A DNA stretch of 64,000 nucleotides from Thermoproteota archaeon (GTDB lineage Archaea; Thermoproteota; Thermoprotei_A; Sulfolobales; Ignisphaeraceae): assembly GCA_030550585.1 (NCBI GenBank), contig JAUQPB010000002.1, positions 32,001 to 96,000 on the forward strand. Reading direction: 5' to 3'. Below the pieces are notes generated by a model. The model had not been told where the DNA came from. It made no database searches and saw nothing but the letters and a program-made list of their open reading frames with translations. Position numbers and translations under genes: made by a program. Of this stretch, positions 10,469 through 41,980 are shown piece after piece (position 1 is the stretch's first letter; each line of letters opens with the position of its first letter).

Positions 10469-10524
10469 AATGCAAGCCGAAGAGCTTATATTTTTGTGCA
10501 GCTAAACGATTTTCCTGGGTCTTT

Positions 10525-14014: not shown

Positions 14015-14897
14015 GCTCCTACATCCAATAATGAATGCAAGTGGGTTTCTGGGCTATTCAAAAGAGCATATACGTAGATTGGCTAGCTATGGTTTCTCAG
14101 CCATTGTCACAAAAACCATAACTCCATATCCTAAAAAAGGTTATGACCCCCCAATAATAATTGCACTGTCTAATGGTGGACTTTTAAATGCTGTAGGTCT
14201 TGAAAATCCTGGCAAAGAATGTATAAATGAGATGGTTGAAGAGGCTAAGAAACTGGGGATTCCGATAATAATTAGTGTTGGAGGGGCAACAGAGGAAGAA
14301 TTTGCTGAAGTTGCTGAAGAGGCCGAGCTCAGGGGTGCCACGGCCATTGAATTGAACCTTAGCTGTCCACATGCAAAAGGTTATGGCATTGAAATTGGAA
14401 TGGATCCGCAAAAAGTATTTAGTGTTGTAAAAAACGTGGCTTCGGTTACAAAAATACCTGTCATAGCAAAACTGGGGCTATCAGACAAGGTTTTAGAGTC
14501 TGCTGGAAAAGCTTTAGAGGCTGGGGCTAGTGGGTTAACTTTGATTAACACAATTAAGGCTATGGCTATAGACATATATTCCTTGAAACCAATTTTAACA
14601 AATGTATTTGGAGGATTATCAGGGCCTCCAATACACCCAATAGCCGTGCGTGTTGTCTATGAGGTCTATAGAGAATACAAAGCTGATATAATTGGCTGTG
14701 GTGGTGTAACAAAATGGGAGGATGTAGCAGAGTTTGTGGTGGCAGGTGCAAGAGCAGTTGAAGTAGGCACAGCAATTATCTTCAGTACAACCCAGCATAA
14801 ATTTGTAGAGGAGATGTTGGACAGTCTAAGAAACTGGCTTAAAATGCTTGGTTTTAAAGGTATTGAAGAGGTTGTTGGTATAGCACAAAAGATTTGA
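13971..14897 (+). CDS. pyrD: Dihydroorotate dehydrogenase catalytic subunit (family 1B)
   Basis: MNASG, NAVGLENPG, ELNLSCPH, LINT, GGLSG. Confidence 0.96.
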   Translation: MDQEPSLRTSVAGIELLHPIMNASGFLGYSKEHIRRLASYGFSAIVTKTITPYPKKGYDPPIIIALSNGGLLNAVGLENPGKECINEMVEEAKKLGIPIIISVGGATEEEFAEVAEEAELRGATAIELNLSCPHAKGYGIEIGMDPQKVFSVVKNVASVTKIPVIAKLGLSDKVLESAGKALEAGASGLTLINTIKAMAIDIYSLKPILTNVFGGLSGPPIHPIAVRVVYEVYREYKADIIGCGGVTKWEDVAEFVVAGARAVEVGTAIIFSTTQHKFVEEMLDSLRNWLKMLGFKGIEEVVGIAQKI

Positions 14898-24116: not shown

Positions 24117-24193
24117 GCCGCCGTAGCTCAGCTCGGTAGAGCGCCGGCCTTGTAAGCCGGTGGTCGCGGGTTCAAATCCCGCCGGCGGCTCCA
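24117..24193 (+). tRNA. tRNA-Thr(UGU), encoded CCA; integration target (att core 24147-24193)
   Basis: GCCGCCG acceptor stem, CTTGTAA anticodon loop, GGTTCAAATCC T-loop. Confidence 0.96.
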
Positions 24194-24236
24194 GCAATTG
24201 AATGAACTCAACTCCTTCTAAAACACTTCTGAAATC

Positions 24237-24267
24237 ATATTGCATGTGATGGATATCGACCATGCAA
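24237..24267. promoter_or_regulatory. Left-end conserved motif ATATTGCATG-N6-ATATCG-N2-CATGCAA (candidate integrase arm/accessory site)
   Basis: Same blocks and spacing as 44355-44385; contains inverted TTGCATG/CATGCAA. Confidence 0.6.
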
Positions 24268-24387
24268 TTGCCGGAGGCATCTATAAGAGTCAATGACTTT
24301 TACACATCCTTTAAATAGAAAGAAACCTGCACCAGTATAACTACTACTAGAACGGTAGGTTTCTAGAAACCTGGTTCTTGAAAACTT

Positions 24388-24606
24388 CTAGAGCATATAG
24401 TTCTAGAAGCTACAGAACTAGGCTATGGAACATGCTGGATTGGTGCATTTGATGAAGCTGAAGTCAAGAAGATTCTGAATATACCGGATAGATACAGAGT
24501 TGTAGCATTAATAACAATAGGTATAGCTTCAGAATCACCATCACCAAGACCTCGAAAACCGCTGAAAGAGATAGTATCTCTAAACATCTTTGGCAACCCA
24601 TGGTGA
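24388..24606 (+). pseudogene. Nitroreductase, C-terminal fragment only
   Basis: LEHIVLEATELGYGTCWIGAFDEAEVKKILNIP...LITIG...RPRKPLKEIV; in-frame TGA at 24379 and no start. Confidence 0.85.
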
Positions 24607-24985: not shown

Positions 24986-25795
24986 ATGATATCTCTCTTT
25001 TCAGCTATACTCTATGGTTTAGCTGCTCTTACCAACTATTTTACTGGTGAAGATCAGTACCTCTGGGAAAGTATCGTATATACGCTCTATTCTCTAGGTT
25101 TTCTAGGACTCTATGTGCTACTCTCAATTATTGCTGCATTAGAGCCTCGTCTAGAGGTCTACATGGTTGGTTTAGGTCTTGTAGCATCTATCTATGCTAT
25201 CTATCCAGCAATTGTCTTAATGGTTTTTGGCGGTATCGTGATATATGCTATAATGTTTTTCTATCTAATGGTATCTGTCACATATCACCCAAAGGTCTAT
25301 GGATACAGTAGGTTCTGGGGTATACCGAAGATTCTTCCAATCATAGTTGGTGCTCCAGTAGCTACTCGTGAGCTAGCTACAATAGTTTGGGAGATATATA
25401 ATCTACATAAGGTTCCTAACATGGAGCCACTAACAACACTAACTCTAGCGATATTGGTTCCAGTACTAATCATGTGTCTAGGAGATATACCTCCCTATAG
25501 AAGGATGGTGAAAATTCTACAGCTACTCGCTATAGCTATAGCAACTATAGCTTACCTATGGCTACTTCGCATAGAGATAGCAGGGTTCCGGATACCCCAT
25601 ATAGTGCTTCAGAAACTAGAAGAATACAGAGCTATAGATATGTTTGAGAAAGGGTTTAGAGCTATAGGGATGCTAGGTCTTTTAGCTTCAGTAGCAACAT
25701 TTGTAGAAGTATTGAAGCATAGCGCAGATGTAAAGAGCTATAAAAAGAAGAGACAAAGAGCTATAGAATCGGTAGAAGAAGTAGAGCTGGTGTAG
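24986..25795 (+). CDS. Multi-pass membrane protein of unknown function
   Basis: 269 aa with many hydrophobic segments and a charged C-tail; ends 19 nt before the CRISPR array. Confidence 0.65.
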   Translation: MISLFSAILYGLAALTNYFTGEDQYLWESIVYTLYSLGFLGLYVLLSIIAALEPRLEVYMVGLGLVASIYAIYPAIVLMVFGGIVIYAIMFFYLMVSVTYHPKVYGYSRFWGIPKILPIIVGAPVATRELATIVWEIYNLHKVPNMEPLTTLTLAILVPVLIMCLGDIPPYRRMVKILQLLAIAIATIAYLWLLRIEIAGFRIPHIVLQKLEEYRAIDMFEKGFRAIGMLGLLASVATFVEVLKHSADVKSYKKKRQRAIESVEEVELV

Positions 25796-25814: not shown

Positions 25815-28800
25815 CTTTCTACTCCCTTTCGGGAGTTTCTAGGTCTGTACCTAGCGCTCGGTCTCGCGTTTGGAGCATTCGACTTTCTACTCCCTTTTGG
25901 GAGTTTCTGTAAGTTCGAAATGTTTCCAGCATCAGACAAAGTGACTGTGACTTTCTACTCCCTTTTGGGAGTTTCATACTTGCTGTAGCTAAGTGCGTAG
26001 ATGTAGACAAGCTCATGACAACTTTCTACTCCCTTTTGGGAGTTTCTAGTTTACGCGTACTTAGATGCACCTGTGCAAATAAAAATCGAGACCTTTCTAC
26101 TCCCTTTTGGGAGTTTCATCTATTAAAAAACTAAAAGAGAGAATCAGACAAGAACATACCTTTCTACTCCCTTTTGGGAGTTTCCTAGCGTTAGGGTAGT
26201 CAAGGTGGTGGTGCCTCAAGTTGTTAAGCCCACTTTCTACTCCCTTTTGGGAGTTTCGCCAACGAGTTGCCAGAGGTAATCGAAGATATTTACGCCTACT
26301 GGAGGCTTTCTACTCCCTTTTGGGAGTTTCATGCATCTAATGCTGAACTCAATAGAAATAGTGCAAGAGATTTAACTATACTTTCTACTCCCTTTTGGGA
26401 GTTTCTCTGATATATGACACTCTAAGTGCAATAATTCAAGCATTTATACGCCTTTCTACTCCCTTTTGGGAGTTTCTGATGATATTGCTGTTGTTCTTGG
26501 TACATCGCTACTTGGATTGAAGCTTTCTACTCCCTTTTGGGAGTTTCCCGGACGGGGGCCCATGGCGAAGATATATATGTTTTGACCGAATCAGCATATC
26601 TATTCTTTCTACTCCCTTTTGGGAGTTTCACAATTAACAATCCCGATTTTAGTGTCTATATGCTTAGAAACAAAAACTTTCTACTCCCTTTTGGGAGTTT
26701 CATAGAGCTCTACATTGCTTCTCAATATCAGCAGAGTACTCTGTCCTTTCTACTCCCTTTTGGGAGTTTCCCAGACAAATATCATGTTATACTACGAGAT
26801 GTTGTTAATAAATTAACTTTCTACTCCCTTTTGGGAGTTTCGCTGAAATTGTGCATCCATTAGATACAGTTGAAACATTATTAACCTTTCTACTCCCTTT
26901 TGGGAGTTTCATTCAGTACAGAGGGTGGGGAGAAGGATGGAGTTGCGTGAATTCACTTTCTACTCCCTTTTGGGAGTTTCATTGTTCATACACCTCCCCC
27001 CACCCATAAACATCACCACACTATACTCCTTTCTACTCCCTTTTGGGAGTTTCCGAGTATCTTCTTGAATATGCTCAACAAGAAATCGAACGGTTCTTTC
27101 TACTCCCTTTTGGGAGTTTCCAATCCTTCACGAGCGTTCTTCAGTATATCCGTCTTTAATTCCCACTTTCTACTCCCTTTTGGGAGTTTCAAAACGGTAT
27201 GTTGTAGTACATAGCAACATCACCTACCACCCTATTCTTTCTACTCCCTTTTGGGAGTTTCGCTATTACATGCACATATACATCACAGACAATATCAGGT
27301 TATTCAGCTTTCTACTCCCTTTTGGGAGTTTCCAATAGAAAACTATTGATGATTGAATTATATTGCAGAGATACTGGTCTTTCTACTCCCTTTTGGGAGT
27401 TTCGCAGAGCGGGGTTTTTATATGTTTTTTGAATTGAATGTATATACACTTTCTACTCCCTTTTGGGAGTTTCAGTGCTGACTTTATAGCGATAACAAAA
27501 GACACTATATATGTGCAGCTTTCTACTCCCTTTTGGGAGTTTCTTATATGTAGAGACAGTATCGTTGCAGTCAATTCAGATTCAGTCTTTCTACTCCCTT
27601 TTGGGAGTTTCGAAGCCAAAGAAAACATAGAGGAAAACATACTGGTTATGAAGATAACTTTCTACTCCCTTTTGGGAGTTTCCCATCAATTGATGAATGG
27701 TATGAGTGGATGGTTGATGTATTATCAGCTTTCTACTCCCTTTTGGGAGTTTCAGCTCAACCCTATTGATGTTGAGAAATTCCTCTCTAGACTTAGACTT
27801 TCTACTCCCTTTTGGGAGTTTCGAGACATATCTAAAGCTGAAGAAAATATACATTGATCCGCCAAAGAACCTTTCTACTCCCTTTTGGGAGTTTCGAGTT
27901 TCAGAAATCGAAAGAGATCAATGTTGGTCGACCATCAAGTCCATTCGTCTTTCTACTCCCTTTTGGGAGTTTCAAAAGAACGTTGATAAAATCGATTTTT
28001 TGAGGGATTATCTCAAACATCTTTCTACTCCCTTTTGGGAGTTTCGTAACACAGACCATAAAGTCGAGACATCTAATCACCACTCTAACGGATATCTTTC
28101 TACTCCCTTTTGGGAGTTTCTATCTGTGGATGTGCTAAAGATCTACGGTGAGCTTGGTAGATACTCTTTCTACTCCCTTTTGGGAGTTTCAGATAGAATA
28201 GACTATATAACATTCTTATTAGCAGAGAAGATACAGAATCTCTTTCTACTCCCTTTTGGGAGTTTCCTAATGCTTTCTTTACCTCAACAAGAACCTCGAG
28301 TATGATATCTTTCTACTCCCTTTTGGGAGTTTCTTGATCCACCGGTCTATGTGTTGAGATACGAAAGATCCTGCTCCTTTCTACTCCCTTTTGGGAGTTT
28401 CTGTGTATTATGTTCATTATGATAGTAAGAGCGGTAAGTTGCTTTCTACTCCCTTTTGGGAGTTTCGTTGTATATGAGTTGTTCATAGTATATCCTTTTT
28501 CTGCATAGATCGCTTTCTACTCCCTTTTGGGAGTTTCTTATACAGATCCACTAGATTGATTTCTTTTGCTTTCTTTTCTCTCTTTCTACTCCCTTTTGGG
28601 AGTTTCCTATGTGTTTCAGAATCTTCTGATGCATAGAAATATAAATAGTACTCCTTTCTACTCCCTTTTGGGAGTTTCTTTGCTAGCTCTTATTCAACGA
28701 TAGAGAGATTAGCTAAGGATATAGTCTTTCTACTCCCTTTTGGGAGTTTCATCTGAAACTGAATTTGTAAATGTTGTTGAAAAATTAAAAAACGAAATCT

Positions 28801-29036
28801 TTCTACTCCCTTTTGGGAGTTTCGGAGAATAGTCCTCAAGCTTTGGGGTCTTGATAGTAAGCACGAGAAAACCTTTCTACTCCCTTTTGGGAGTTTCTAG
28901 AGAATGGAAGCTTGTTGCACTTAAAAATGAAAATGAGTTCGTTGACTTTCTACTCCCTTTTGGGAGTTTCATAGAGGGGAGAGGCTGGAGCCGGCAAGAA
29001 GAGTCAGGAGTCTTTCTACTCCCTTTTGGGAGTTTC
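25815..29036 (-). CRISPR. CRISPR array, 46 repeats / 45 spacers (manual count), no leader and no cas genes in window
   Basis: 25-bp repeat CTTTCTACTCCCTTTTGGGAGTTTC (minus strand GAAACTCCCAAAAGGGAGTAGAAAG, ending in GAAAG); spacers ~40-57 nt; only the leftmost repeat is variant, marking the trailer. Confidence 0.97.
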
Positions 29037-29445
29037 TGGTATAGCTACCTCAGGTCTAGTGTTAGCGTCATTCATAGCATGTAGGCTTAAGAAACCTCTA
29101 TCTTATGTTAGGATAGACAGAAAGATCCACGGTACACAGTCTATTGTTGAAGGTGTTGTAGAATCAAAAAACTGTTTAATAGTAGATGATGTAGCAACTA
29201 CTGGAGGATCTATAGAACATGCATATAACGCCATAAAGGAGGTTAGGGGTATGCCAACAGCAGCATTAGTGGTTGTAGATAGAGAACAAGGAGCAAGAAA
29301 GAAGATAGAGTCACTCGGTATGAAATTCTATAGCTATATTAATGTATCAAACATCTTCAAGTATCTTTATGAAAAAGGATTAATCGATACAAGAACCTAT
29401 GACGAAGTTATTAACTATATTAAGCGTTTTAGTCAAGATCTATAG
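29037..29445 (+). pseudogene. pyrE: Second pyrE, 5'-truncated and fused to the CRISPR repeat
   Basis: [11 protein letters not shown]...[16 protein letters not shown] aligns with 9866-10468 from about residue 64; first ~60 codons missing. Confidence 0.9.
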
Positions 29446-29524
29446 ACAGTGCCCAAAGAGTTCATCATTGTAGACAGAAATGTTTTATAGTTTACAGATA
29501 GTAGCATTAGATTTGGGCATAAAG

Positions 29525-30454
29525 ATGATCACATCATTTAAAAATAGAGATGTGGTATCAATACTGGACTTCACTAGGGAAGAACTCGAGACATTGTTTG
29601 AGTATGCAGATAAATTCCGCAAAGTTGAGGGAAAACTGAATCTACTAAACGGAAAGGTGGTTTCTCTCGCTTTTTTTGAACCATCTACTCGTACAAGGCT
29701 CAGTTTTGAAGTAGCAGCAAAACGTCTAGGTGCAGATGTTGTATCAATCATAGGTGAGGAAGCCTCCAGTATAGCTAAAGGCGAAAACTTGGCAGACACA
29801 ATACGTATGCTTGATGCATATTCCAATATTATAATTCTAAGACATAGATATGAAGGAGCAGCAAAATATGCTGCAGAAATAGCCGAAAACCCTGTTATCA
29901 ATGCTGGCGATGGTATTCAACATCATCCAACACAAGCTATGATCGATCTATATACAGTAAAGACACTCTTCGGATCAATCGATGGATTAGTGTATGTTGT
30001 TTTAGGGGATCTTAGATATGGAAGAGCAGCAATGTCATTCATATATGGTCTTTCTCTATATAAGCCCAAGAAGTTGTATGTAGTTGCTCCTCAACTATTA
30101 CGTATACGTAACGAAGTTCTACAAATACTGAAAGAAAGAGGTCTACCTATCGAAGAGAAAAATGATGTGAGAGAAATAATCAGTGAAGCAGATGTTCTAT
30201 ATGTTACACGTATCCAGAGAGAAAGGTTTCCAGATCCTATGGAGTACGAAAAAGTTAGAGGTTCGTATATTGTTACACTAGATCTTCTAGAGAAAGGTAA
30301 GTCTACATTAAAAGTTCTACACCCTCTACCAAAAGTAGATGAAATAGACCATAAAGTTGATACATCAAGATATGCAGCCTACTATCTTCAAGCTAGATTA
30401 GGTGTACCAGTAAGAATGTCTTTATTATCCCTAGTTTCTGGTGTAGAGATATGA
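29525..30454 (+). CDS. pyrB: Aspartate carbamoyltransferase catalytic subunit (second copy)
   Basis: [20 protein letters not shown]; collinear with copy 1. Confidence 0.96.
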
Positions 30455-30933
30455 GTTCAGAAAACATACACACGTTGGTGGTTCCAAAAATACTGAATGG
30501 AACTGTCATCGATCATATACCAGCAGGTAGAGCTCTAGACATACTAAAGGTATTGAATATAACTGGAGGAGAAGGCTGGAGAATAGCGGTACTATTGAAT
30601 GTTGAGAGCAAGAAGTTAGGTAGAAAAGATATAATAAAAATAGAGCGTAGAAAATTAACTTCAGCAGAAGTAAACGTCATAGCACTCATAGCTCCTACAG
30701 CAACTATAAACATTATCGAAAATTTTGTTGTAGTCGAGAAGTTTAAGGTAAATGTGCCAGAGGTTATAGAGGGTGTAATTAGATGTCCGAATCCTACATG
30801 TATATCGAATAAAGAACGAGAACCAGTAAAGTCTAGGTTTAGAACATTATCAAAGGATCAGCTTATATTTCGTTGCGAATATTGTTCAACCATTGTAACT
30901 AGAGATGATATACTAAAGCTTATCATAAGATGA
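30451..30933 (+). CDS. pyrI: Aspartate carbamoyltransferase regulatory subunit (second copy)
   Basis: [21 protein letters not shown]. Confidence 0.95.
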
Positions 30934-31716
30934 ATGTTATGTCTATTAAACCTGCCAAAATATTAAGAATAGATAGAATAGCTGAAAATACGTATCTCTT
31001 AGCTGTAGAATTATTTACGCATATGGACAATATTTCTCCGTTCAATTTTTATGGTTTGGGTACCTCGCGTAGATGAAATACCCTTAAGTATAGCATTTTT
31101 GGATAACAACATTATATATTTTCTATTCAAAGTTAAAGGTCTAGGTACAGAAACACTCTCTAAAATGTGTAAAGGTGAGATAGTAGGTTTAAAGGGGCCT
31201 CTAGGTAGAGGTTTTATCGTTGAAGACTATACGAAAAGTGTACTAGTGATAGCTGGAGGTATAGGTATAGCTCCCATCCCTTTCTTCATATATAGGTCAA
31301 AATACAAGAAGCTCGATGTTGTATGGGGAGTTAAACGAAGAGAAGAACTTTTTGATTTAAATATATTTAATCAAGATATTGGAGATAGGTATAGATTATT
31401 TATGGCAACAGAAGACTGTAGCTATGGTTTTTGTGGAACAGCTTTAGAGAGGCTAAAGAATATTCCACTAGAAGATTATGACATCATATTAGCAGTAGGA
31501 CCACAACCTATGTTGAAAGGTGTATGCGAATACATAAGAAACACTAACCTAGAAGCATATGTAGCTCTTGAAACAATGGTTAAATGCGGTATAGGTCTAT
31601 GTGGTAGTTGCTTCATTAGATCATCAAACAAGCTTCTCTGTATAGATGGACCAGTATTTAGATGTGATGAGGTGATACAGCATCTTGGAAAGACTAATAA
31701 TAGCAAAAACATATGA
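30930..31716 (+). pseudogene. pyrK: pyrK second copy with a frameshift in the T-run at 31046-31050
   Basis: ATG 30930 frame gives [11 protein letters not shown]...SPFNF; the continuation [13 protein letters not shown] is in another frame (31051); copy 1 reads [14 protein letters not shown]. Confidence 0.8.
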
Positions 31717-32956
31717 AGATGGTTATTTGAAAGAGATAATGGTGTTAGTTAATAAAGGTATTGTTGAAAGAAGATTTAACTATATCGACAAGAATCTATG
31801 TAGAGATTATGAATGTATAGATCTTCGTGCTAAAGGCATACTTCTCCCAGGGTTCATAGATATCCACGTACATTTACGTGGACTTAAACTTAGTTATAAA
31901 GAAGATGAAGAAAGCGGTACGAAGGCTGCTTCTAGAGGTGGTTTTACAGCTGTTGTAGATATGCCTAACACTTTACCACGAATAGATAACAAACAAGCTC
32001 TTCAAGAAAAAATAGAAGCACTTAAGCTAAAGAGTAGAGTTGATTTTGGAATCTATGTATCTCCAGCAAAAGACTATAGGGAAATGTATGACATGTTGTA
32101 TGAAGAAGGTGTTGTAGGTGTAAAATTCTTTCCTCAAGATCTTCACCTATTCCCCAAGATCCTCAATATTACTAGTTCCAGAGATCTAAATAGAATAGTG
32201 ATTGTTCATGCAGAACATCCATATATGGTGAATGATTGTGAAGCTGGTTCTAGATGGATGTGTAGACCTATTGAAAGCGAGCTTTCAGCTCTAGATATTG
32301 TTCACATGCATGTTAAAGAAAATATGAAGATCCATATCACACATATAACAAATGTTCTAACACTATCTTTAGCAAAAAGATATAAATTCACTACAGATAC
32401 TTGTCCACACTATCTCTACTTAGATTCTTCTCACGAGAAGGAAATGGGCTGTATAGCTAAAGTAAATCCTCCTCTTAGAACTCCTTCAACAAGATACTCA
32501 TTATTGAAACTACTGAAAGCATTTGATGCAGTTTCCTCTGATCATGCGCCTCACAGTTTCGATGAAAAACTTCTTGATTTCTCGATGTGTCCATCAGGTA
32601 TAGCTTCTCTAGAATTGACTGCTTCCTTAATCCTAAACTTAGTAAATTTAGGTGCTATAGATCTAGATGACGCTGTAAAGCTCTTATCTCGAGGTCCCTC
32701 CAAAATACTTGGACTCAAGAGATGGGGATGTACGTATATTGGTTGTATAGCTAGTTATACTGTAGTGGATATGAATAAAGAATTTCGTGTTGATCCTGAA
32801 ACATTTTATTCGAAATCTAGATTTTCGCCCTACAAAAAGAATGTATTAAAGGGTGTAGCTACAGCAACTATAGTCAGAGGCGGTATTGTTTATATCGATG
32901 AAGGATATGAAGAGAAAATCGAACCTGAACCTTTAACAAAGTTTATGGTGAATTAA
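31685..32956 (+). CDS. pyrC: Dihydroorotase (second copy)
   Basis: PGFIDIHVHLR, DMPNT, KVNPPLR, SDHAPH. Confidence 0.95.
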   Translation: MERLIIAKTYEDGYLKEIMVLVNKGIVERRFNYIDKNLCRDYECIDLRAKGILLPGFIDIHVHLRGLKLSYKEDEESGTKAASRGGFTAVVDMPNTLPRIDNKQALQEKIEALKLKSRVDFGIYVSPAKDYREMYDMLYEEGVVGVKFFPQDLHLFPKILNITSSRDLNRIVIVHAEHPYMVNDCEAGSRWMCRPIESELSALDIVHMHVKENMKIHITHITNVLTLSLAKRYKFTTDTCPHYLYLDSSHEKEMGCIAKVNPPLRTPSTRYSLLKLLKAFDAVSSDHAPHSFDEKLLDFSMCPSGIASLELTASLILNLVNLGAIDLDDAVKLLSRGPSKILGLKRWGCTYIGCIASYTVVDMNKEFRVDPETFYSKSRFSPYKKNVLKGVATATIVRGGIVYIDEGYEEKIEPEPLTKFMVN

Positions 32957-32958
32957 TT

Positions 32959-33864
32959 GTGCTGGAAACAGTTGTAGCCACAATAAGTCTTAGACATCCT
33001 GTAATGAATGCTAGTGGTATACTTGGAACACATAGAGAACATATATCAAGACTTGTAAGTTATGGATTAGCTGCTGTAGTTACAAAGACCATAACCCCAG
33101 AACCTAGGGAAGGTTATAATCCACCAATAATAGTTGAGCTACCTACAGGTGGATTAATTAATGCTGTAGGTCTAGAGAATCCTGGCAAAAATGTTATTAA
33201 AGAGCTTGTAGAGGAAGCTAAAAAATATAGCATACCTATTATAGTTAGTATTGGCGGTAGAAATGAAGATGAATTCATTGAGGTTGCTGTAGAAGCAGAT
33301 ATGAATAAAGCTGATGCTGTAGAGCTTAACTTAAGTTGTCCTCATACCAAAGGATATGGTGTCGAGATAGGGGTAGATCCTAAAAATGTGTACTCAGTAG
33401 TTAAAGCAGTTGTTTCAACAATAAAGATACCTGTTGTAGCTAAACTAGGGTTAAGCGATAGAGTAGTTGAATCAGCAGAAAAAGCATTAGAGGCAGGAGC
33501 CAAAGGTTTAACGCTCATAAACACAATAAAGGCTATATATATAGATGTATATTCTTTAAAGCCTGTATTAACGAATATCTATGGAGGTCTTTCTGGTACC
33601 CCAATACATCCTATAGCTGTCAGAATTGTCTATGATGTGTATAAAGAAACTAAAGCCGATATAATAGGATGTGGAGGGGTAGTAAACTGGCAAACAGCAG
33701 CAGAAATGATTCTAGCTGGAGCAAAAGCTATTCAAGTAGGAACAGCATTAATGCGTGATCCAAAGAGAATTGTAGAAGATATAGTTAAAGGATTGAGTGA
33801 ATGGCTAGAAACAATAGGAATAAAAGAAATTTCACAAGCAGTTGGTCTCGCTCATAAGGTGTAA
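32959..33864 (+). CDS. pyrD: Dihydroorotate dehydrogenase (second copy)
   Basis: MNASG, NAVGLENPG, ELNLSCPH, GGLSG. Confidence 0.95.
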   Translation: MLETVVATISLRHPVMNASGILGTHREHISRLVSYGLAAVVTKTITPEPREGYNPPIIVELPTGGLINAVGLENPGKNVIKELVEEAKKYSIPIIVSIGGRNEDEFIEVAVEADMNKADAVELNLSCPHTKGYGVEIGVDPKNVYSVVKAVVSTIKIPVVAKLGLSDRVVESAEKALEAGAKGLTLINTIKAIYIDVYSLKPVLTNIYGGLSGTPIHPIAVRIVYDVYKETKADIIGCGGVVNWQTAAEMILAGAKAIQVGTALMRDPKRIVEDIVKGLSEWLETIGIKEISQAVGLAHKV

Positions 33865-34702
33865 AGATGTGTCTATACTCGTTATATCAACATTAAACAC
33901 GAATTTAGCGATGGAGATAAATCGATACATTAAAGAGTTGAGTAATAAATATTCATATATAGTGACATATGTATGGGAATACTTGCCTCAACACTCTCTA
34001 GAGATACAATATTTCCATAAACCATTGGCTAAACTCGAGAAAGACTTTGAACAAATAGTAAAACTAAAGGAATTGATAGTATTTGTGAACACTATTTGCA
34101 TAGATTCTGTAAGACAACAATTAATGAATTACATAGACAGTAAAGTGGATAACGTTGTACTAATTGATTATTGTCTCAATCATGTTTCTTGTTATAAGAA
34201 TCTACTATCGCTACCTCCGTATATTACTATCGTAAAAACATTCATAGACCGTATAACCACAATTTTTTCAAATATCGACGAAATATTGATACGTATAAAG
34301 ATATGCAGAGAATGCTTGAAGACTCTTTCTATTCTACATAATATCGATACTATCAAGACTATAGATCTGTTCCAAGAACTAATAAGACAAGTTATTAAAA
34401 ATCATTACAGAATAGAAATTTCAATTAATACGATTACAGAATTTCTTTTAACTGCAAGAGGGATAGTGAAGGGGTACAGAGAAGAGAGAGCATATATGTA
34501 TAGAGTTGAGATATCTGAAGAACATACGAATAAAAGCTACATGCTACAACTTTTAGCAATCCTATTGTTAATAACCGATGGATATAATAAAGCTATGAGA
34601 AACATCTGCATCTCAGACATTGGTCTAGATGAAGGACTTTACTCAATCTTCTTTGCATATCTTGTTAAACATGGTGCAAACATCTCTGTGAATATACTCT
34701 AG
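33842..34702 (+). CDS. Hypothetical protein, homolog of 14894-15577
   Basis: Same position after pyrD; similar C-terminus (YRVEIS vs YRIELS; DIGLDEGLY vs DMGKIEGVY). Confidence 0.6.
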   Translation: MVSLIRCKDVSILVISTLNTNLAMEINRYIKELSNKYSYIVTYVWEYLPQHSLEIQYFHKPLAKLEKDFEQIVKLKELIVFVNTICIDSVRQQLMNYIDSKVDNVVLIDYCLNHVSCYKNLLSLPPYITIVKTFIDRITTIFSNIDEILIRIKICRECLKTLSILHNIDTIKTIDLFQELIRQVIKNHYRIEISINTITEFLLTARGIVKGYREERAYMYRVEISEEHTNKSYMLQLLAILLLITDGYNKAMRNICISDIGLDEGLYSIFFAYLVKHGANISVNIL

Positions 34703-34887
34703 ATAACGTTATATTAATGATGTAGCGACACAATACTTTTAATTGCTAAATACTAGCTAAAGATGTTTCACAATATATAGTGTTGTTTCAAAATCCTATA
34801 GAATTACTTCTATTGAGGCAATTTTAATTTATTTACCAGCTATAGACATATTTACCGATACAAGGATAAATAGTTTGGGATAACGAT

Positions 34888-37392
34888 ATGGAGTCTAAAA
34901 AACGTATAGCCATATATGTGGTAGTGATAATTGTTTTGGCTAGCATTACTATATATAGCTATTATTATCTAGTGAGAGAAAAAGATAAAGAGATAACTCC
35001 AAAGACATTACCAACAGAATCCATATCTCTAGTCACAGAAACAATACTTGTGGAGATTTCAACACCTACAACGAATACCATCAAAGAAGAGGAAGATATC
35101 ACAAAAACTACATTAACTACACCTACAACTTTTCCACAAGAAACGATAACCACAGTTATTAACCATACTACTAGTCAACCACCTTTATATCACCTATCGA
35201 CAGAAACCTTTCCACAGGAAAAGGGTTTAGCTATGAATATAATCTATTATCCCAAAACAGTTATTTCGTGTTACGAGAAAATCGAAGTAATGTTCAATAT
35301 ATCGAACCTAATGTACAGAAATCCATACAACTCAAGCGACATAGATGTTGTAGGATACATCTATACACCAAATAACGAGGTTATCAAAATTCCAGCGTTC
35401 TACACAAGGAACTACACGATTCAAAGTATGGGATCGAGGGAACATATAGTTTTATTCAATACGCCACCTCTCTGGGCATTACGTTTTACACCAAAAGTCT
35501 CTGGAGAATATAGGGTAGTTATAGAGGCTAGAAACAGTAGTGGGGTAAAAATTTCGAGTGAAGAGCTGAAGATACAGGTTTCTGAATGTAGAAACAAAAG
35601 AGGATTCATATCAATTGATGAATCAAAGAAATTCTTGGTGTTTGAAGACGGATCTTCAGAAATAATGCTAGGCATAAACTTAGCTTGGCCTCCAAACAAA
35701 CTTGAGGCTATATCCTTCTATAGCTCATGGTTCAAAAGACTTAAAGAACTAGGTGTTAAGGTTGTACGCATAGGTCTTGTTCCATGGTCTCTAAATCTAG
35801 AATGGAGTAATTTGAATCGCTATAGTTTAGCAGATGCAGCAAGAATAGATGAAATCATCAGATTGGCAGAAGAACATGATATCTACATAATATTTGTGTT
35901 TATGTGGCATAACGAACTTGCAGATGATTGGGGAAACAATCCATATAATGCTTTAAGAGGAGGGCCTATAAAGAATCCTGAAGAATTTTGGAGTAATCCC
36001 ATAGCCATAGATATATTCAAGAATAAGGTGAGGTACATAATCGCTAGATGGGGTTATTCGCCACATATACTTGCATGGGAATTAGTCAATGAAGCTGATC
36101 TAACATCAAACTTCTTTAGCATTAGAGATGCTTTTGTTAATTGGGTTAAAGAGATAAGTAGTTATGTAAAGTTACTTGATCCCTATAAACGACCTGTAAC
36201 TGTAAATCTTGCAGACTATAACTCAGAACCAAGAGTATGGAACATAGAGAGTATAGATTTGATAACAGTCCATAGATATGGACCCACAGGGTTTAAGGAT
36301 ATAGGATCCTCAATACCAAGTATAATAGATTCTCTATGGAATACCTATAGAAAGCCTGTAGTGATAACAGAGTTTGGTGTAGATTATAGATGGATAGGGA
36401 TGCAGGGATTTACCGGAATTCCGTATTGGGCTATAGATAGAGAAGGTATAGGTCTTCATGAAGGATTATGGAGTTCCACTTTATCAGGATCTCCTATATC
36501 GGCCATGAGCTGGTGGTGGGATACACAAATAGAGAGATACAACCTGTTCTATCACTTTAAAGCTTTATCTGAATTCCTAAAAGGTGTTGACCCAGTAAAA
36601 GGAAGACTAAGTAGATTAAATGTATATGTAGAATCAGCTTCAACTATCGAAGGCAATACAACTTCCTTAATACTTTATCCAAGTGCTGGATGGATCTGGG
36701 TTTCACCAGTAAAACAGAACATCTACACTATACACCCTAACGGAAAGATAGAGGGTGATACATCGCTACTTAGTGGCTTTGTGTACGGTAAAGGACATAA
36801 CCAGCGGACTCTGAATCCCATATTCATAGTTACGTTTCTCGATAGAGGTAGAATGATCTTGAATGTAAATTCTGTAGGAAGAGGATCAGCAGTAGTATCG
36901 ATATATGTCAATAACACAAAGATAGAGGAGAAAGTGTTACCCGATATAGATGGTAAAAGTGATGAAGATGCTAATGAGTATAATATCGACATTACAATAG
37001 ATTTTGAACCTGGCACATATGAGATTAGAATAGATAATGAAGGTACAGATTGGTATACATGGAACTACATAGTATTCGAAAACACTATATACGCTTCAGC
37101 AAAGGTGCAGGCAATAGGTTTAGGTAATAAGAGTTTTGCAATAATGTGGATAAGGAATACAGACTTTAACTGGTGGAATTATGCAGTATTAAACAAATCA
37201 CCTATACCTCTAAAGAATGTAGTGATTTCAGTAGAAGGTTTAGAAGATGGTATGTATGTAGTTGAGTTTTGGGATACATTTAGAGGAGAAGTAGTAGAAA
37301 GTAAAGAGGTAATGGTTACTCAAGGAAAAGCACGCATATCAATAGATAGTTTAGAGAAGGATCTAGCTTTAAAGATGTATAAAACAGAGTAA
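34888..37392 (+). CDS. Membrane-anchored clan GH-A (GH5-like) glycoside hydrolase
   Basis: N-terminal TM and Thr-rich linker; RYIIARWGYS..ILAWELVNE (acid/base), HRY, VVITEFG (nucleophile), WWW. Confidence 0.82.
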   Translation: MESKKRIAIYVVVIIVLASITIYSYYYLVREKDKEITPKTLPTESISLVTETILVEISTPTTNTIKEEEDITKTTLTTPTTFPQETITTVINHTTSQPPLYHLSTETFPQEKGLAMNIIYYPKTVISCYEKIEVMFNISNLMYRNPYNSSDIDVVGYIYTPNNEVIKIPAFYTRNYTIQSMGSREHIVLFNTPPLWALRFTPKVSGEYRVVIEARNSSGVKISSEELKIQVSECRNKRGFISIDESKKFLVFEDGSSEIMLGINLAWPPNKLEAISFYSSWFKRLKELGVKVVRIGLVPWSLNLEWSNLNRYSLADAARIDEIIRLAEEHDIYIIFVFMWHNELADDWGNNPYNALRGGPIKNPEEFWSNPIAIDIFKNKVRYIIARWGYSPHILAWELVNEADLTSNFFSIRDAFVNWVKEISSYVKLLDPYKRPVTVNLADYNSEPRVWNIESIDLITVHRYGPTGFKDIGSSIPSIIDSLWNTYRKPVVITEFGVDYRWIGMQGFTGIPYWAIDREGIGLHEGLWSSTLSGSPISAMSWWWDTQIERYNLFYHFKALSEFLKGVDPVKGRLSRLNVYVESASTIEGNTTSLILYPSAGWIWVSPVKQNIYTIHPNGKIEGDTSLLSGFVYGKGHNQRTLNPIFIVTFLDRGRMILNVNSVGRGSAVVSIYVNNTKIEEKVLPDIDGKSDEDANEYNIDITIDFEPGTYEIRIDNEGTDWYTWNYIVFENTIYASAKVQAIGLGNKSFAIMWIRNTDFNWWNYAVLNKSPIPLKNVVISVEGLEDGMYVVEFWDTFRGEVVESKEVMVTQGKARISIDSLEKDLALKMYKTE

Positions 37393-37674
37393 ATATAGAA
37401 TACAAAGCAGATACCAATGTTTCAACACTTTTATTATCTATTTTGTTTGTATTCACAATATCTCTACATAATATTACAATATTGAACTCTATAGATGGTC
37501 GGATACCAATAGATATATTTAATAAGGCTCTCTACATGTATAGTTTATGTTACATTTATCAAAATCATTAATTAGGTGATTTATAGAATATGAATAGGGT
37601 GTATCTATTTCCTAACTTCTGTGAAGAACAATCATAACCTCGGAGAACCCGAGATTGTTGAAAAACGCTGAGAG

Positions 37675-38322
37675 TTAAGCAGAGCGTTTCTTGTACATGT
37701 AGGAGTAGTTTGTTAAGTCTATAACCTTAGATGTATCCGTTTTGTATCGGTGTTCTTGTCTTAATGTTATAATTACATGTAAACCCATCTTGCTTAAATT
37801 CTCGAGAATTTCAGGGAATATGTATTCTGATGCATATTCGTCAAGATAGTTAAGAGGATCATCTATTATGGTTATAGGGGCTTTTACTAGTAAAGTGGTA
37901 ACCAACATTACTCTTCTCCTTTGCCCCATTGAGAGTTCTCTTAATCTAGCTTTTTGAGCATGGGTAAGACTGACTATCTCCAGCGCTTTTTCAGCCTCGC
38001 TTCTTTCCACGGGTTTCATGTACATGTATGGAACCAGCCTTAAGTAGTCAATAACCCTCAACTCTAGGGGCAAATCCACGTCCTCGGGAACGTAGTATAT
38101 GTCTTTCCTATGTTTTGTTATGTCAACTCCGTTAAAGGTGATCTTACCTCGTAAAGGAGGTAGAAGAGTTGCAAGCGTTCTTGCAAGTGTGGTTTTACCA
38201 ACACCGTTGGGACCAACAAAGATCAGAATATCATTCGCGTTAACGCTAAAGTTTAATACCCCAATAACCGGAATCTTACCATATCCGCATACTAGATCAG
38301 TTGCTTGTAACATGTTCATCAC
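37675..38322 (-). CDS. ABC transporter ATP-binding protein
   Basis: GPNGVGKTT, LSMGQRRR, IIDDP. Confidence 0.9.
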   Translation of the reverse strand: MMNMLQATDLVCGYGKIPVIGVLNFSVNANDILIFVGPNGVGKTTLARTLATLLPPLRGKITFNGVDITKHRKDIYYVPEDVDLPLELRVIDYLRLVPYMYMKPVERSEAEKALEIVSLTHAQKARLRELSMGQRRRVMLVTTLLVKAPITIIDDPLNYLDEYASEYIFPEILENLSKMGLHVIITLRQEHRYKTDTSKVIDLTNYSYMYKKRSA

Positions 38323-38788
38323 CCATCAATCCCAATATACCACTTAAATCGAATACAATGTTGATTGACTGAAGTAGAAGAGGTATAAGAGCAAGGAAGT
38401 ATTCTGGATAGTACTTCAACACTATTAACCCAATCATGGACGGAACTAGAGGCCCTGAAACTGTTGCTAAATACAATCTCTCCAGGGGTACATAATCTAG
38501 GGGCTCTAATCGTATCATATGGTTGCTGAGCATAACAGATACATCGATGTCTAGTATCGCGAAATGAACAAGCTCGTGTAGGAGCGTTCCTGCAATAAAC
38601 AATGCTATTATGGCAATTGACGATAATATAAAGCTTAACCCTAAGTCAAGTGATGCCCATGTCATCATAATAGAGCCTATTGTGCAAGTCAATGCAAGGA
38701 GAATAGTTGGCTTACTTACGAGTAGGTGTTTTAGAATTAAGCTTACAAATAGACTGTATTTTCTTTTCTTTACAACTGCTTTAGCCAT
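38297..38788 (-). CDS. Small membrane zinc metalloprotease (HExxH, M50/zincin-like)
   Basis: LLHELVH after TM helices, SGP motif, N...D near the C-terminus. Confidence 0.65.
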   Translation of the reverse strand: MAKAVVKKRKYSLFVSLILKHLLVSKPTILLALTCTIGSIMMTWASLDLGLSFILSSIAIIALFIAGTLLHELVHFAILDIDVSVMLSNHMIRLEPLDYVPLERLYLATVSGPLVPSMIGLIVLKYYPEYFLALIPLLLQSINIVFDLSGILGLMGDEHVTSN

Positions 38789-40167
38789 GGAATCACCTTG
38801 TATCTTATAAAATATCCAACCTTAACAGGCAAATCGTAAAATAAAATAGAGATGATGAACACCGATATGGTGTATGCAACAGCCATCGTGGTAAGATAAT
38901 TTTGTACTATTTTTTGTACTATTATCCGCCCCATGAGCGTGCCCACGATAAGGTAAAACATAAAACACTTAATAATCTCAAAGTCTTTTTCAACTCTATT
39001 AAGCGTGAACATTCCTGCTAGCAATCCTGTAGTTAAAATGAGTATGGGAACACCTTCTAGCTCGATTAAGCCAAAAACGTGGAGAACGCTGTATATGACT
39101 AATGCATATAACCAACCAAATGAGAAAACAGAAATAACGTTCAATACCCTTGTAGAAAACCTTGTATTCGTAAGGAATTTAACGTAATGCATGTATGAAT
39201 CAATGTACCTATCCACGACATTTAACAATGGAGGAACTACGAACATAGCTAGACTCCCGAAAAGACTGCCGAGCATCAATGCAAGTAGTGTTTCCTCGTC
39301 AAAACCTAAATCACGAACATTGGTTGTTACACCTCCTACGCTTATAGATAGTATTACCTTCTCCCCAAGTGCGAGCTTCCCGAGAGCTATGAGTAGAAAT
39401 AGAAACGCAGTAGTTGCGAGTATGTATGGACTGAATGATGCGTATCCAAGGCTTCTTAACACTTCAACTTTTGGAATTTTACTCATGAAAAGGTCGGTTA
39501 GTATCTTAATCAGTACTGGTGAAATCGAGTAAGCGATCAACACCAAAAGTAAACTCAAAGGTATCGAGATTACCATGCTAATGCCCAGTATTATTATCGA
39601 TAATAGTGATGACACGGTTGCTGTAATCCTTATGTTATGCCAGGACGCTATCAAGAATCCAAGGAGAAGTATGTATGTTGTGAAGAATATGTACATATTC
39701 AATGGGAGCTTCAGAACATGGATGTTTAACACGAACAGAAGTGAAAGAGGAAGAATCAACAACATGTAGTTGAACACGGAAAATAGAAGACTAACATCTT
39801 GTACCTTAGCGATGGGGTGCTGGTACAACTTAAGCTTTTTAAAAGAATTAAACCTGTTGATATATAGAAATCCTACTAACAGGAAGAGGAATATGCTGAA
39901 CGTGATGTAACCACTAATTATTCTCAATCTATGGGTAATGTCTAATTCTGTCAGGATGTCTAAGTACTTAGTGAGCTCTTTTCGTATATATAGCTCGTTA
40001 GCAATGAAGGAAAATATGATACTTAGCGGAAATAAGTAATCTTGTATTACGAGTAAAAAGTAACATCTAAAAAGGAAAAATATTGGGAGAAAAATATAAA
40101 AAATCTTCTTACATTTATTCATATTCGACATTACCTGCACTTGCAATTTAGAGTAACGAAGAGCCAT
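38770..40167 (-). CDS. Polytopic membrane protein (probable ABC permease)
   Basis: Roughly a dozen hydrophobic segments; overlapping neighbours in an operon with the ATPase. Confidence 0.6.
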   Translation of the reverse strand: MALRYSKLQVQVMSNMNKCKKIFYIFLPIFFLFRCYFLLVIQDYLFPLSIIFSFIANELYIRKELTKYLDILTELDITHRLRIISGYITFSIFLFLLVGFLYINRFNSFKKLKLYQHPIAKVQDVSLLFSVFNYMLLILPLSLLFVLNIHVLKLPLNMYIFFTTYILLLGFLIASWHNIRITATVSSLLSIIILGISMVISIPLSLLLVLIAYSISPVLIKILTDLFMSKIPKVEVLRSLGYASFSPYILATTAFLFLLIALGKLALGEKVILSISVGGVTTNVRDLGFDEETLLALMLGSLFGSLAMFVVPPLLNVVDRYIDSYMHYVKFLTNTRFSTRVLNVISVFSFGWLYALVIYSVLHVFGLIELEGVPILILTTGLLAGMFTLNRVEKDFEIIKCFMFYLIVGTLMGRIIVQKIVQNYLTTMAVAYTISVFIISILFYDLPVKVGYFIRYKVIPWLKQL

Positions 40168-40583
40168 GAAATAGAAACACTACACTCTTCGACGTCACCT
40201 TTGCATGTAAGTAAAGGACAGGCTAAACCACAAGTTGCTAGATACACAGCGATGAACACTGCAGCTAGTATCACAATGGTGATTAATACTCCGTAGAGAA
40301 ACAACCTAGTTTTATAGCTTTTACTCGATTGCTTCTTGTGTATTGAGTAAGTAGTTAGAAGCGCTGAAAGTGTGGATAGTGGTATTATAGTGTGGGGGTT
40401 TCCGTGGTAGGAAACAACACAACTGTTGTTCTCGCAATAACTCCCGCTTATATTTATCAGGGGGATTCCCAGCCCGATGATTGATAATAAGACTGACGCA
40501 AGGAAGACTACTTGAGCTATTAAAACTGTTAACATCAAAGTTGTTGCCACGTAATACAGTCCCAGTATTACATGCCTTTTCAT
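40131..40583 (-). CDS. Small Cys-rich membrane protein, first gene of the 4-gene operon
   Basis: Three hydrophobic segments, Cys clusters (CENNSC, CGLACPLLTC..C); GGTGAG-like RBS upstream. Confidence 0.55.
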   Translation of the reverse strand: MKRHVILGLYYVATTLMLTVLIAQVVFLASVLLSIIGLGIPLINISGSYCENNSCVVSYHGNPHTIIPLSTLSALLTTYSIHKKQSSKSYKTRLFLYGVLITIVILAAVFIAVYLATCGLACPLLTCKGDVEECSVSISWLFVTLNCKCR

Positions 40584-40669
40584 AACCTGCTCTCACCTAC
40601 TGTTAAAATCTCATGTATGAAATAGTTAAAAAATCTTTATGAACGTAGAGTGATCATGAATGTGTATGT

Positions 40670-41080
40670 TCAACTACATATGCTTAAAATTCGTCTCTTT
40701 TCGCAACTTGTGGTCTACCATAAGGTTGTAGAACTTTCTCCGAAAGCCTTCAGGCTGTCTTTAGCGGTCTTGAGCTTCTCTCTGCTCGTTGATTTTGCTT
40801 TCTCCAGGGTACTGCTTGAGAACTCTGGCTAGGTGCTTGGGGACGCTCTTAGGATTTTTGCTGTTTTGCGGTAGGCTTTCTCCTGCTTCCTTAGCTTCAC
40901 AATGTATTTCTCCTTCTTTCTCAAGGAGTAGAATAACGTTTTCGGACACTTTTACTATCTGATTACTGTCTTACTGTTACTTATCACGTTATTTTACTAT
41001 TTATTGCTATTGCTCCTGTTGATTTATCCATCCTCTGCAACTCTATTCTGCTACTCTGCGAACAGAAAAACCATCCATGT
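40670..41080 (-). pseudogene. Degenerate tyrosine-integrase remnant
   Basis: Broken frames give FSVRRVAE (cf. SGxRxxE) and PEGFRRKFYNLM (cf. PKxLRKxFYNxM of SSV-type integrases). Confidence 0.4.
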
Positions 41081-41161
41081 AAAACACTCTCCTCACATAA
41101 AACCCTGTATCCTGTGTTTTGCATGATTGGTAACATGTCTTCATCATGAATCAGCTAGTTT

Positions 41162-41590
41162 ATGTCTAGACGATTAATCCATGGAATCCTCGGTTTACCC
41201 AACTCGCCTAAGTTCCTTAAGCTGTATCAATTTCACTTTCAATTCTTTCCATTATATTCAACGAAAACAATATCAAATAAAGTTACTATATTACTAGCTA
41301 TATTTAAATTTAATGGGAAATGGTATGCAATTACATCAAGTTTTACAGCTGGAACCATACTATGGGAGATAGAGGATCCTACATCAACGGTTTTTACCTA
41401 TGTTAAAACAATATTCGAGAAAGGTCGTGAAAATCCCTGCATATATCCTGTTACTACATCTAATGGCGAAATAAGGTTCATGATGTCATTGGCCACAGAT
41501 ACAGAATTTGGTAGTCGTCATAAAATCTATGTATTTGACACACACTTCAACCTTTTGGAGGAATACGACATCATTACATATAGAGTTTAG
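41162..41590 (+). CDS. Hypothetical protein or gene fragment
   Basis: 142-aa ORF, beta-rich; coding-like sequence continues past the stop. Confidence 0.35.
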   Translation: MSRRLIHGILGLPNSPKFLKLYQFHFQFFPLYSTKTISNKVTILLAIFKFNGKWYAITSSFTAGTILWEIEDPTSTVFTYVKTIFEKGRENPCIYPVTTSNGEIRFMMSLATDTEFGSRHKIYVFDTHFNLLEEYDIITYRV

Positions 41591-41819
41591 TCAGCAGGAC
41601 AATCATTTTACCTAGATCCATGGTACATCTACATAAATCAAGATCAATCTCCCACAAGAACTTTTCAAAACTCAGGTATATGGCCTGGAGCATATATAGA
41701 GATATATAGACTTAAGACAAACTATAGATACTACATTGAGGAGAAATAGAATCCTACAGATCAGTCTCAGCGATATAATTGATACTTTAGTAAAATATAG
41801 TTGAATGTAGTTCTATTGC

Positions 41820-41980
41820 TGGAGCCGCCGGCGGGATTTGAACCCGCGACCACCGGCTTACAAGGCTTGTTCATATATATGTTGATTTGCATGAGCGATA
41901 TTTGTTGCATGCAATATCTAGTTGCAGATGTATTTGTTTTATGTCAAAGATTCTCTGATAAGCTTTTCGATGTATCTGGG
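41820..41980 (-). repeat. Inverted 161-bp copy of the integrase 3' end plus tRNA-Thr att core (att core 41820-41866)
   Basis: Reverse complement of 44292-44452 with 1 mismatch; its core is identical to the tRNA. Confidence 0.93.

Follow-up and report, generated by a model that had tools for sequence, protein, structure and literature searches.

CRISPR arrays (short palindromic repeats, clustered and regularly interspaced) have been little studied as recombination hot spots outside a few bacterial cases. Varble et al. are said to have described, in 2019, how a spacer serving as crossover homology fuses its array to the DNA flanking the target, the product being moved by a mobile element. Three further kinds of described system come close to the locus treated here. 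Locus F of Saccharolobus (Sulfolobus) solfataricus is a leaderless array with an 899-bp fragment of a pNOB8-like plasmid between two repeats (Garrett et al. 2015, PMC4390879); half-site intermediates of Cas1-Cas2 and Cas4-Cas1-Cas2 are known in vitro and from structures, with substrates of tens of nucleotides (nt) (PMC5815122; bioRxiv 10.1101/2022.05.30.494039); and reshuffling at tRNA genes by integrase elements has been described in other archaea (PMC8371274), and in S. islandicus Hfr (high-frequency recombination)-like mobilisation is known beside an integrated plasmid (PMC9899855). The stretch analysed here (the window) comprises 64,000 nt of a Thermoproteota archaeon, i.e. C7:32001-96000 of the 1.76-Mb metagenome-derived assembly G000 (7 contigs, 1.95 % contamination), and the metagenome runs that hold it come from hot-spring samples. 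Within the window, a CRISPR array without a leader is joined to the interior of a second pyrE gene at the exact bond at which new spacers are inserted; if CRISPR-linked, such a join would make arrays recombination hot spots that disarm themselves. For comparison we used two genomes of other species of the same genus, G004 and G005, and the nearest relative of G000, G007 (~86 % DNA identity).

The leaderless array and its junction with pyrE

The junction involves the following features of the window:
25815..29036, minus strand: CRISPR array of 46 repeats and 45 spacers, without a leader; trailer and variant repeat at the left
29012..29036, minus strand: terminal leader-side repeat, perfect, the 46th and last; its last base, 29036, is the junction
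29037..29445, plus strand: truncated pyrE encoding residues 64-198 of 198; codons 1-63 are gone, as is the promoter side (phosphoribosyltransferase domain; G005 PyrE)
29037..29082, minus strand: 46 nt of pyrE adjoining the repeat, the modal spacer length, followed by AGG at 29083-29085

The last repeat (29012-29036) passes directly into codon 64 of pyrE at 29037. The window reads GGAGTTTC to the left of the junction (over a longer span, GGGAGTTTC) and TGGTATAGC to the right of it. Since leaders begin with TTG, the T at 29037 alone could just as well be the first base of the lost leader. The open reading frame (ORF) listed at 29026-29445 takes its start, TTG, from within the repeat, and the PF00156 match begins only at profile position 35, short of a full-length PyrE; the pyrE fragment is presumably dead.

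The 25-nt repeat, CTTTCTACTCCCTTTTGGGAGTTTC, is identical in 45 of the 46 copies, and the leftmost alone differs (TTTC for TTTT), as the first-pass annotation, made from the sequence alone, had noted. All 45 spacers are unique and measure 40-57 nt, with a mode of 46 nt (11/45). The Rfam model CRISPR-DR17, which the repeats of this crenarchaeal type I-A/III family resemble, draws the same 25-nt unit boundaries, including those of 29012-29036, at 38.8 bits, i.e. under its gathering score of 42; its strand call for the repeat (plus strand) was set aside and the orientation taken from leaders instead. Two other arrays of G000 (C3:33419-36431 and C7:275275-276886), the repeat of which is one base off that of the window (TTAT), share a 228-nt AT-rich leader, 91 % identical, directly after GTTTC. 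In the relatives, GTTTC is followed by a leader-type flank in 16/16 informative arrays from 8 genomes (of 22 rows, five that touch contig ends and one degenerate cluster of three repeats were set aside); this flank recurs between arrays and contains TATA-like runs, and beyond it G004 has csx1 at one of its arrays and csa1-cas1-cas4 at a second. Because the arrays of the relatives and the sibling arrays carry their leader after GTTTC, a leader is expected right after 29036, as had been proposed from the first, and transcription would run from right to left. The variant leftmost repeat is common to G005 and G004, as expected of a trailer; G005 also has its flank, and the spacers of G005 differ.

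No such AT-rich leader stands next to the first repeat of the window array, coding sequence starting at 29037 instead, and an orphan leader is found nowhere in the G000 assembly, its only two leaders belonging to the other arrays; the leader reported missing is indeed missing. Nor is there a further repeat (allowing up to 4 mismatches) between C7:61036 and C7:275275. A completed integration of a 'giant spacer', with a repeat on both sides and the leader beyond, is thus absent, in agreement with the first-pass annotation. A copy of the repeat with a leader elsewhere in the assembly, which that annotation had proposed to look for, exists only in part: the exact TTTT repeat occurs in no other G000 array, whereas the two TTAT arrays named above, one base different, do have leaders. 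The 137 repeats of G000 are spread over four arrays, one isolated repeat and a fragment of three repeats where a contig ends. In a check for self-targeting, no spacer of the window array (0/45) matched G000 over more than 20 nt.

That the junction is real follows from independent metagenome data. Logan contigs of four metagenome runs were aligned to window positions 23901-43900, and in run X1 a single contig of 8735 nt (depth 127.7) spans 28947-37679 and crosses the junction. It holds 90 nt of the array to the left, including the second-last repeat, the unique last spacer and the last repeat, and runs rightward through the pyrE fragment on to a gene of an ATP-binding cassette (ABC) transporter. 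Compared with the window it shows 10 substitutions and 2 indels, with no competing path in this k=31 assembly. Because of these 12 differences, X1 gives an independent view of a slightly different strain, and because its contig bridges the junction, the join is not an assembly artefact. A mis-join at a repeat, the outcome that the first-pass annotation had named as refuting the join, would have appeared as reads leading from the repeat into a leader or into more spacers; the dominant X1 contig crosses the junction instead. A pure assembly or read artefact is therefore very improbable, even though no second copy of the junction was found in JGI metagenome or GTDB genome contigs: a 34-nt junction pattern had 0 matches in JGI metagenome contigs, and its 19-nt core had 2 metagenome and 3 genome matches (JGI contigs, GTDB genomes), all in unrelated DNA without further similarity. 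Runs X2, X3 and X6 carry the wild pyr locus without the junction. In X3 and X6, which stem from two other studies, contigs align from exactly 29037 rightward, with 4255 and 6819 nt, respectively, of other sequence upstream.

The adaptation genes cas1, cas2 and cas4 were not found in the G000 assembly. Cas1 (PF01867) gave 0 matches in G000 where control genomes responded, and the type I-A cassette of G004 (csa1-cas1-cas4-cas6-cas3) had no tblastn match, a cas locus in an assembly gap being possible. Three RAMP genes (type III) lie at C4:779035-781909, beside the array of contig C4. Among the 16 other genomes of the genus, nine have Cas1, i.e. G004, G005 and 7 more, and G007 is without it. The array would thus be unable to grow in G000, and its transcription is not expected without a leader promoter; since it has no leader and the assembly no cas1, it can be regarded as a fossil. 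Array content varies among the G005 reference, X1 and the window although the leader is absent: the X1 array has the same first spacer as the window and a different second one (from 25908), and G005 shares none of the first spacers.

The imported island and the tRNA-Thr integrase element

Both sides of the junction are, from their identity levels, recently imported. Positions 24387-41980 form an island of ~17.6 kb that is ~99.5 % identical to a G005-like sister species and consists of two parts: the donor array with its trailer-side flank, which ends exactly at the leader-side repeat edge, and an unbroken stretch of the donor chromosome, 12.8 kb long, that begins at codon 64 of pyrE and reaches the att (attachment) site of the donor tRNA-Thr(CGT). 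The island is flanked by attL, in tRNA-Thr(TGT), on one side and by an integrase gene and attR on the other. The features concerned are, from left to right:
9204..14897, plus strand: resident pyr operon (pyrF, pyrE, pyrB, pyrI, pyrK, pyrC, pyrD), complete (Pfam domains)
24117..24193, plus strand: tRNA-Thr(TGT) (ARAGORN); its 3' 47 nt (24147-24193) are the att core, attL
24194..24386, plus strand: sequence of 193 nt read as the left end of an integrative element, recurring next to tRNA-Thr genes in G005, G011, G002 and G010
24387..24606, plus strand: nitroreductase 3' fragment (last 72 codons and stop), the left breakpoint of the imported DNA
24986..25795, plus strand: donor-type ORF for a membrane protein of 269 aa, at the trailer end of the array, no Pfam family
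29480..33864, plus strand: imported pyrB, pyrI, pyrK, pyrC and pyrD, open frames throughout (Pfam)
33842..41814, unstranded: remaining imported segment with a 286-aa ORF, an 834-aa ORF, an ABC ATPase, four more ORFs and the flank downstream of the donor tRNA-Thr(CGT)
41815..41980, minus strand: inverted att copy (41815-41866, 52 nt identical) and 114 nt of integrase-gene 3' end and spacer
43065..44333, plus strand: tyrosine integrase, intact, 422 aa (PF16795, 3e-24)
44406..44452, plus strand: attR, which repeats the 3' half of tRNA-Thr in direct orientation (46/47 identical), 72 nt past the end of the integrase gene

On the array side, the end of G005:C9 matches 24387-25839 at 99.6 % identity. 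The break at 24387 cuts the nitroreductase gene, which in G005 encodes 170 aa (PF00881, 3e-39). The 269-aa ORF lies inside the same match, the array starts 19 nt past its stop codon, and the G004 homologue is equally placed beside G004 array 1. On the pyr side, 29037-37818 matches G005:C13 at 99.5 % identity as far as that contig reaches, and G004 at 97.7 %; imported PyrB is identical to that of G005 (100 % aa; 98 % to G004), its gene being the sole aspartate carbamoyltransferase gene in both genomes. Further right, 41295-41866 is 95.6 % identical to G004 next to its tRNA-Thr(CGT), 41295-41814 being the flank downstream of that tRNA gene, a few kb beyond the G004 pyr operon. The flanks of the island, 15644-24202 on the left and, for example, 54458-56622 on the right, are 66-70 % identical to G005, i.e. 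at the native level. At 30000-38000 the G+C content is 33-36 %, below the 38-41 % of the native flanks, which would fit a foreign origin. The 834-aa ORF (34888-37392) has no Pfam family and a 54 % identical paralogue at C4:634378-636903.

Contigs from the metagenome runs also bear on the island. In X1, a contig with a depth of 154.7 begins at 24364, i.e. 23 nt left of the breakpoint, and shows 0 differences to 25907; the X1 contigs over the island have similar depths of 128-178. A further X6 contig aligns from exactly 24387 and another covers 35426-41830 unbroken.

The first-pass annotation had considered that a microhomology-mediated deletion in place produced the junction and took out the 5' part of pyrE together with pyrF, the cas genes and the leader; the frame across the junction (V-S-G-I-A-T-S-G) does resemble resident PyrE. 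Such a deletion is hardly credible. The resident pyr operon at 9204-14897 is intact, syntenic with those of G005, G004 and G007 at 65-86 % DNA identity, and shares 50-71 % aa identity with the second cluster; it is the native one and not the source of the fragment at 29037, which is 99.7 % identical to G005 in DNA and in protein only 56 % identical to resident PyrE. The 5-6 bp of microhomology had been measured against resident pyrE; at the corresponding site the donor-type genome G005 reads GTTATTGT followed by TGGTATAGC (G004: GTTATTGTC followed by GGTATAGC), and the repeat end shares 0 nt with donor pyrE at the junction. Neither an AGTTTC at the junction codon of donor pyrE nor the repeat upstream of the donor pyr operon, both of which that annotation had proposed to check, is present in G005. 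Upstream of the match, G005 has intact pyrE and pyrF in the gene order of the resident operon (as in window 1-14774, at only 65-71 % identity), and the array flank and the pyr block, both ~99.5 % G005-like, lie on separate G005 contigs (C9 and C13). In G004 the homologous array is on C2, followed by leader, csx1 and cobalamin genes and not by pyrF, and the pyr locus is on C4; as each lies more than 36 kb from a contig end, the partners are not neighbours in the donor type.

The sequences around the island are those of a type II (pNOB8-like) integrative element, i.e. an integrase gene beside an att site and copies of the tRNA 3' half on both sides. The left end of the element is 86 % identical to G005:C15:74-291 (tRNA included) and 75-81 % to G011, G002 and G010, and a 76 % identical integrase paralogue is found at C4:242983-244218. 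The integrase gene is bracketed by an inverted repeat of 161 nt (41820-41980 and 44292-44452, 99 %) that combines att with the final 42 nt of that gene. Being the only long inverted repeat, and in view of the lack of a Cas1 family match, it does not make the element a casposon. Positions 41815-41980 are a scar that an element from this family left at the tRNA-Thr(CGT) of the donor. X1 and X6 contigs show alternative continuations at 41977-42081, where both orientations or other copies may coexist.

Relative to G007, the region has been reshuffled between two tRNA-Thr loci. In G007, tRNA-Thr(TGT) is followed by DNA that G000 has on C3 (C3:208469-243964), and the counterpart of window 48118-64000 follows tRNA-Thr(CGT). 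That G000 is the host of the island comes from the metagenome-assembled genome (MAG) contig by itself, and a misassigned host, which would be compatible with any mechanism for the junction, is an unlikely but real alternative: the fused piece would then be part of a free element or of a G005-like strain that had been rearranged, with the contig chimeric at the tRNA-Thr/att repeats (47-161 nt). It would suit a metagenome assembly with the contig number and contamination given above, in which both island ends are att or inverted-repeat sequence common to several species, the G007 left and right flanks stand on separate contigs beside two different tRNA-Thr genes, the X1 contigs break at 41844 and around 41984-42081, and the end of C4 also has a 99 % G004-like patch. 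Set against this, C3 of G000 is rearranged to match, with the DNA that adjoins tRNA-Thr(TGT) in G007 joined to other DNA at C3:227691, and X1 contains the left join of element sequence and island (24386/7) as well as island contigs of similar depth.

Possible origins of the fusion

The suspicion of the first-pass annotation that the spacer-integration site is involved is supported. Measured from the repeat edge, 46 nt of pyrE are followed by AGG, which is CCT on the strand of CRISPR RNA sense, immediately 5' of the 46-nt 'protospacer'. For type I-A systems of Sulfolobales three protospacer-adjacent motifs (PAMs) are reported, CCN among them, with the PAM end normally pointing toward the leader (PMC4390879). 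By chance, NGG would be met in this segment at exactly 46 nt from 3.7 % of positions, at 45-47 nt from 9.8 % and at any spacer length of 40-57 nt from 44 %.

The mechanism that we tentatively favour, at somewhat less than even confidence, is that a spacer derived from pyrE recombined with pyrE-bearing DNA. An array in a G005-like cell would first have gained an ordinary 46-nt pyrE spacer beside the CCT motif. This leader-end spacer would then have recombined homologously with pyrE-bearing DNA, a crossover within the spacer leaving the remaining array and its repeat joined to pyrE from the protospacer onward, i.e. with the PAM-side flank, while the reciprocal product would have taken the leader and one repeat. 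Such a crossover would also silence a self-targeting spacer. Because the pyr block adjoins the integrase element of the donor, the fused piece would later have been carried into G000 with that element, in what we take to be the order of steps. We rank this reading first because every step in it is an ordinary one, Cas1 is not required in the present host, and a second fusion in G000 is naturally accommodated:
C4:787332-789416 (locus L038 9333-11417): second leaderless array, 22 TTAT repeats (array 787332-788859), with a truncated primase-polymerase-like gene

The trailer flank of this C4 array is 91-95 % identical to G007. From the third base after its last repeat on, the sequence is that of a primase-polymerase-like gene without its first 36 codons (against four longer homologues); the protein is 80 % identical in aa to P0002, the gene occurs in 0/16 other genomes of the genus, and its N-terminal part is nowhere in the assembly. 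From 536 nt past the junction onward, the DNA is 99 % identical to G004. The evidence for this second junction is the assembly by itself. Considering that leader-type flanks are present in all 16 informative arrays of the relatives, flush fusions are not the norm: they are seen at two of four informative G000 arrays against 0/16 in the relatives. A second copy of the 46 nt beyond either flush junction was not found in the assembly. As a further observation, C4:789395-790482, which reaches the contig end, is 99 % identical to G004:C2:111176-112143 (beside a tRNA gene there) and 98 % to G005:C29:3112-3238, which makes it a further piece of DNA from a sister species, immediately past the flush junction of C4.

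That members of the genus take spacers from the chromosomes of sister species is indicated by a G004 spacer (C2, ~288213) that matches G005:C13:36254-36303 over 49/50 aligned nt, the copy of G004 itself matching over 45/50; the G005 target lies ~10.5 kb upstream of G005 pyrE. Only one protospacer was found for the 682 distinct spacers in G000 and the fetched loci of relatives. The window array had no match among GenBank phages and array-to-array matches only among 26 genomes of the family, and its three newest spacers had 0 matches each in IMG/VR.

Several points weigh against recombination through a pyrE spacer. The AGG at 46 nt, although expected at only 3.7 % of positions, carries no meaning unless the PAM of this repeat family is CCN-like, and the sole protospacer found for the family has AAT, not CCN, at the PAM position. 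At the C4 array NGG comes at 42 nt, which tells nothing, since 44 % of positions have NGG somewhere within 40-57 nt. None of the 682 distinct spacers of G000 and 8 relatives matches pyrE, the arrays of G005 being mostly unassembled, and the reciprocal product, with the 5' part of pyrE, spacer, repeat and leader, was not seen. In a G005-like host a pyrE spacer would be self-targeting. Moreover, the only case of spacer-protospacer recombination known to us is that reportedly described in staphylococcal phages by Varble et al. in 2019.

An acquisition that stalled after its first half is a rather doubtful, though serious, alternative. Here, only the transesterification at site 1 (the leader site) would have taken place, with the PAM side still attached to kilobases of DNA, and replication or repair would have fixed the branched intermediate and released the leader. 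The window (GGGAGTTTC followed by TGGTATAGC), compared with the donor (GTTATTGT followed by TGGTATAGC), has the geometry of a site 1 half-site product as given in PMC5815122, i.e. the junction is the exact site-1 bond with the right polarity, the 3' end of the window minus strand being joined to GAAAC.... According to the same source, site 1 is efficient and site 2 weak in S. solfataricus type I-A, and blunt and 3'-overhang ends are both used. Systems with Cas4 insert the non-PAM end first at the leader site while Cas4 stays on the uncut PAM end, with a half-site intermediate in vitro (bioRxiv 10.1101/2022.05.30.494039). Such a course predicts a PAM one spacer length from the junction, where AGG stands at 46 nt, and would also account for the second flush junction in G000. 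To our knowledge, and as far as we found in the literature, a fixed kb-long half-site product has no in-vivo precedent, which speaks against the stalled acquisition, as do the hypothetical resolution of the intermediate and the PAM caveats raised above. It would further require Cas1 where the event occurred, and since G000 and G007 are without Cas1, the second case, in an array of resident type, must be old or have used Cas1 in trans. The wider proposition that the CRISPR integrase may join kb-long DNA ends to the leader-repeat boundary in vivo, and that stalled half-site products can be fixed, is accordingly held with the same reserve. Both CRISPR-linked routes yield an exact repeat edge without microhomology, and under either of them a G005-like cell is the most likely place of origin of the fusion, which would then have travelled with the adjoining integrase element.

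The remaining candidate is a chance illegitimate join, blunt and resembling non-homologous end joining, of two broken donor fragments, one of them broken at the repeat edge. The region is heavily rearranged around the tRNA-Thr att sites, and the other internal breakpoint, 24386/24387 in the middle of the nitroreductase gene, is an ordinary illegitimate join with a 1-2 nt overlap. A random break, however, would fall within 1 nt of the leader-side repeat edge in an estimated ~3 % of cases (2-3 positions of the ~71-nt unit), and both the same flush edge at the second G000 array and the low chance frequency of NGG at the modal spacer length make such an accident quite improbable.

Implications and comparison with known systems

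If the favoured recombination through a spacer, or another CRISPR-linked origin, holds, the window would preserve a natural and rarely recorded case of long DNA being stitched together by CRISPR spacers or machinery. It also documents what would be a very recent interspecies transfer of chromosomal DNA (~0.5 % divergence over 17.6 kb) in hot-spring Crenarchaeota, tied to a tRNA-Thr integrase element and with a 45-spacer CRISPR array and a five-gene pyrimidine block as cargo. Should a half-site product after all lie at its root, the integration site would be a natural breakpoint at which leaders are lost and arrays are fused to foreign or chromosomal DNA, the fused pieces then being movable between species by integrase elements, and the window junction and the second G000 junction would be footprints of one reaction. 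The case thereby offers a way to ask in vivo whether half-site products of Cas1-Cas2 escape into genomes.

The staphylococcal-phage case differs from this one in that here the host is an archaeon, the target a chromosomal gene and the vehicle a tRNA-integrating element, and no free-standing spacer was observed. With the half-site intermediates of Cas1-Cas2 and Cas4-Cas1-Cas2 (PMC5815122; bioRxiv 10.1101/2022.05.30.494039), the junction shares the lack of repeat duplication and a PAM-like motif one spacer length off on the unprocessed side; in contrast to their short substrates, kilobases would be involved here, and the product would be fixed in a genome and have lost the leader. Like type II (pNOB8-like, lambda-paradigm) elements, the element at hand has its integrase beside attR and a tRNA 3' half as att, and, as in the gene capture and Hfr-like mobilisation ascribed to such elements, the imported block directly adjoins the donor att (PMC8371274; PMC9899855). 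Unlike them, it has no conjugation genes in its remaining 2.4 kb, its att copies are partly inverted (161-nt inverted repeat) and its cargo includes a CRISPR array.

The closest known object is the leaderless locus F of S. solfataricus (PMC4390879). Both are crenarchaeal arrays without a leader, with frozen spacer content and with long DNA at the position of a spacer. In contrast to the plasmid fragment of locus F, enclosed between two repeats, the DNA at the junction described here comes from the chromosome of a sister species, includes a pyr operon, measures at least 12.8 kb and has a repeat on one side only, and the array itself is imported.

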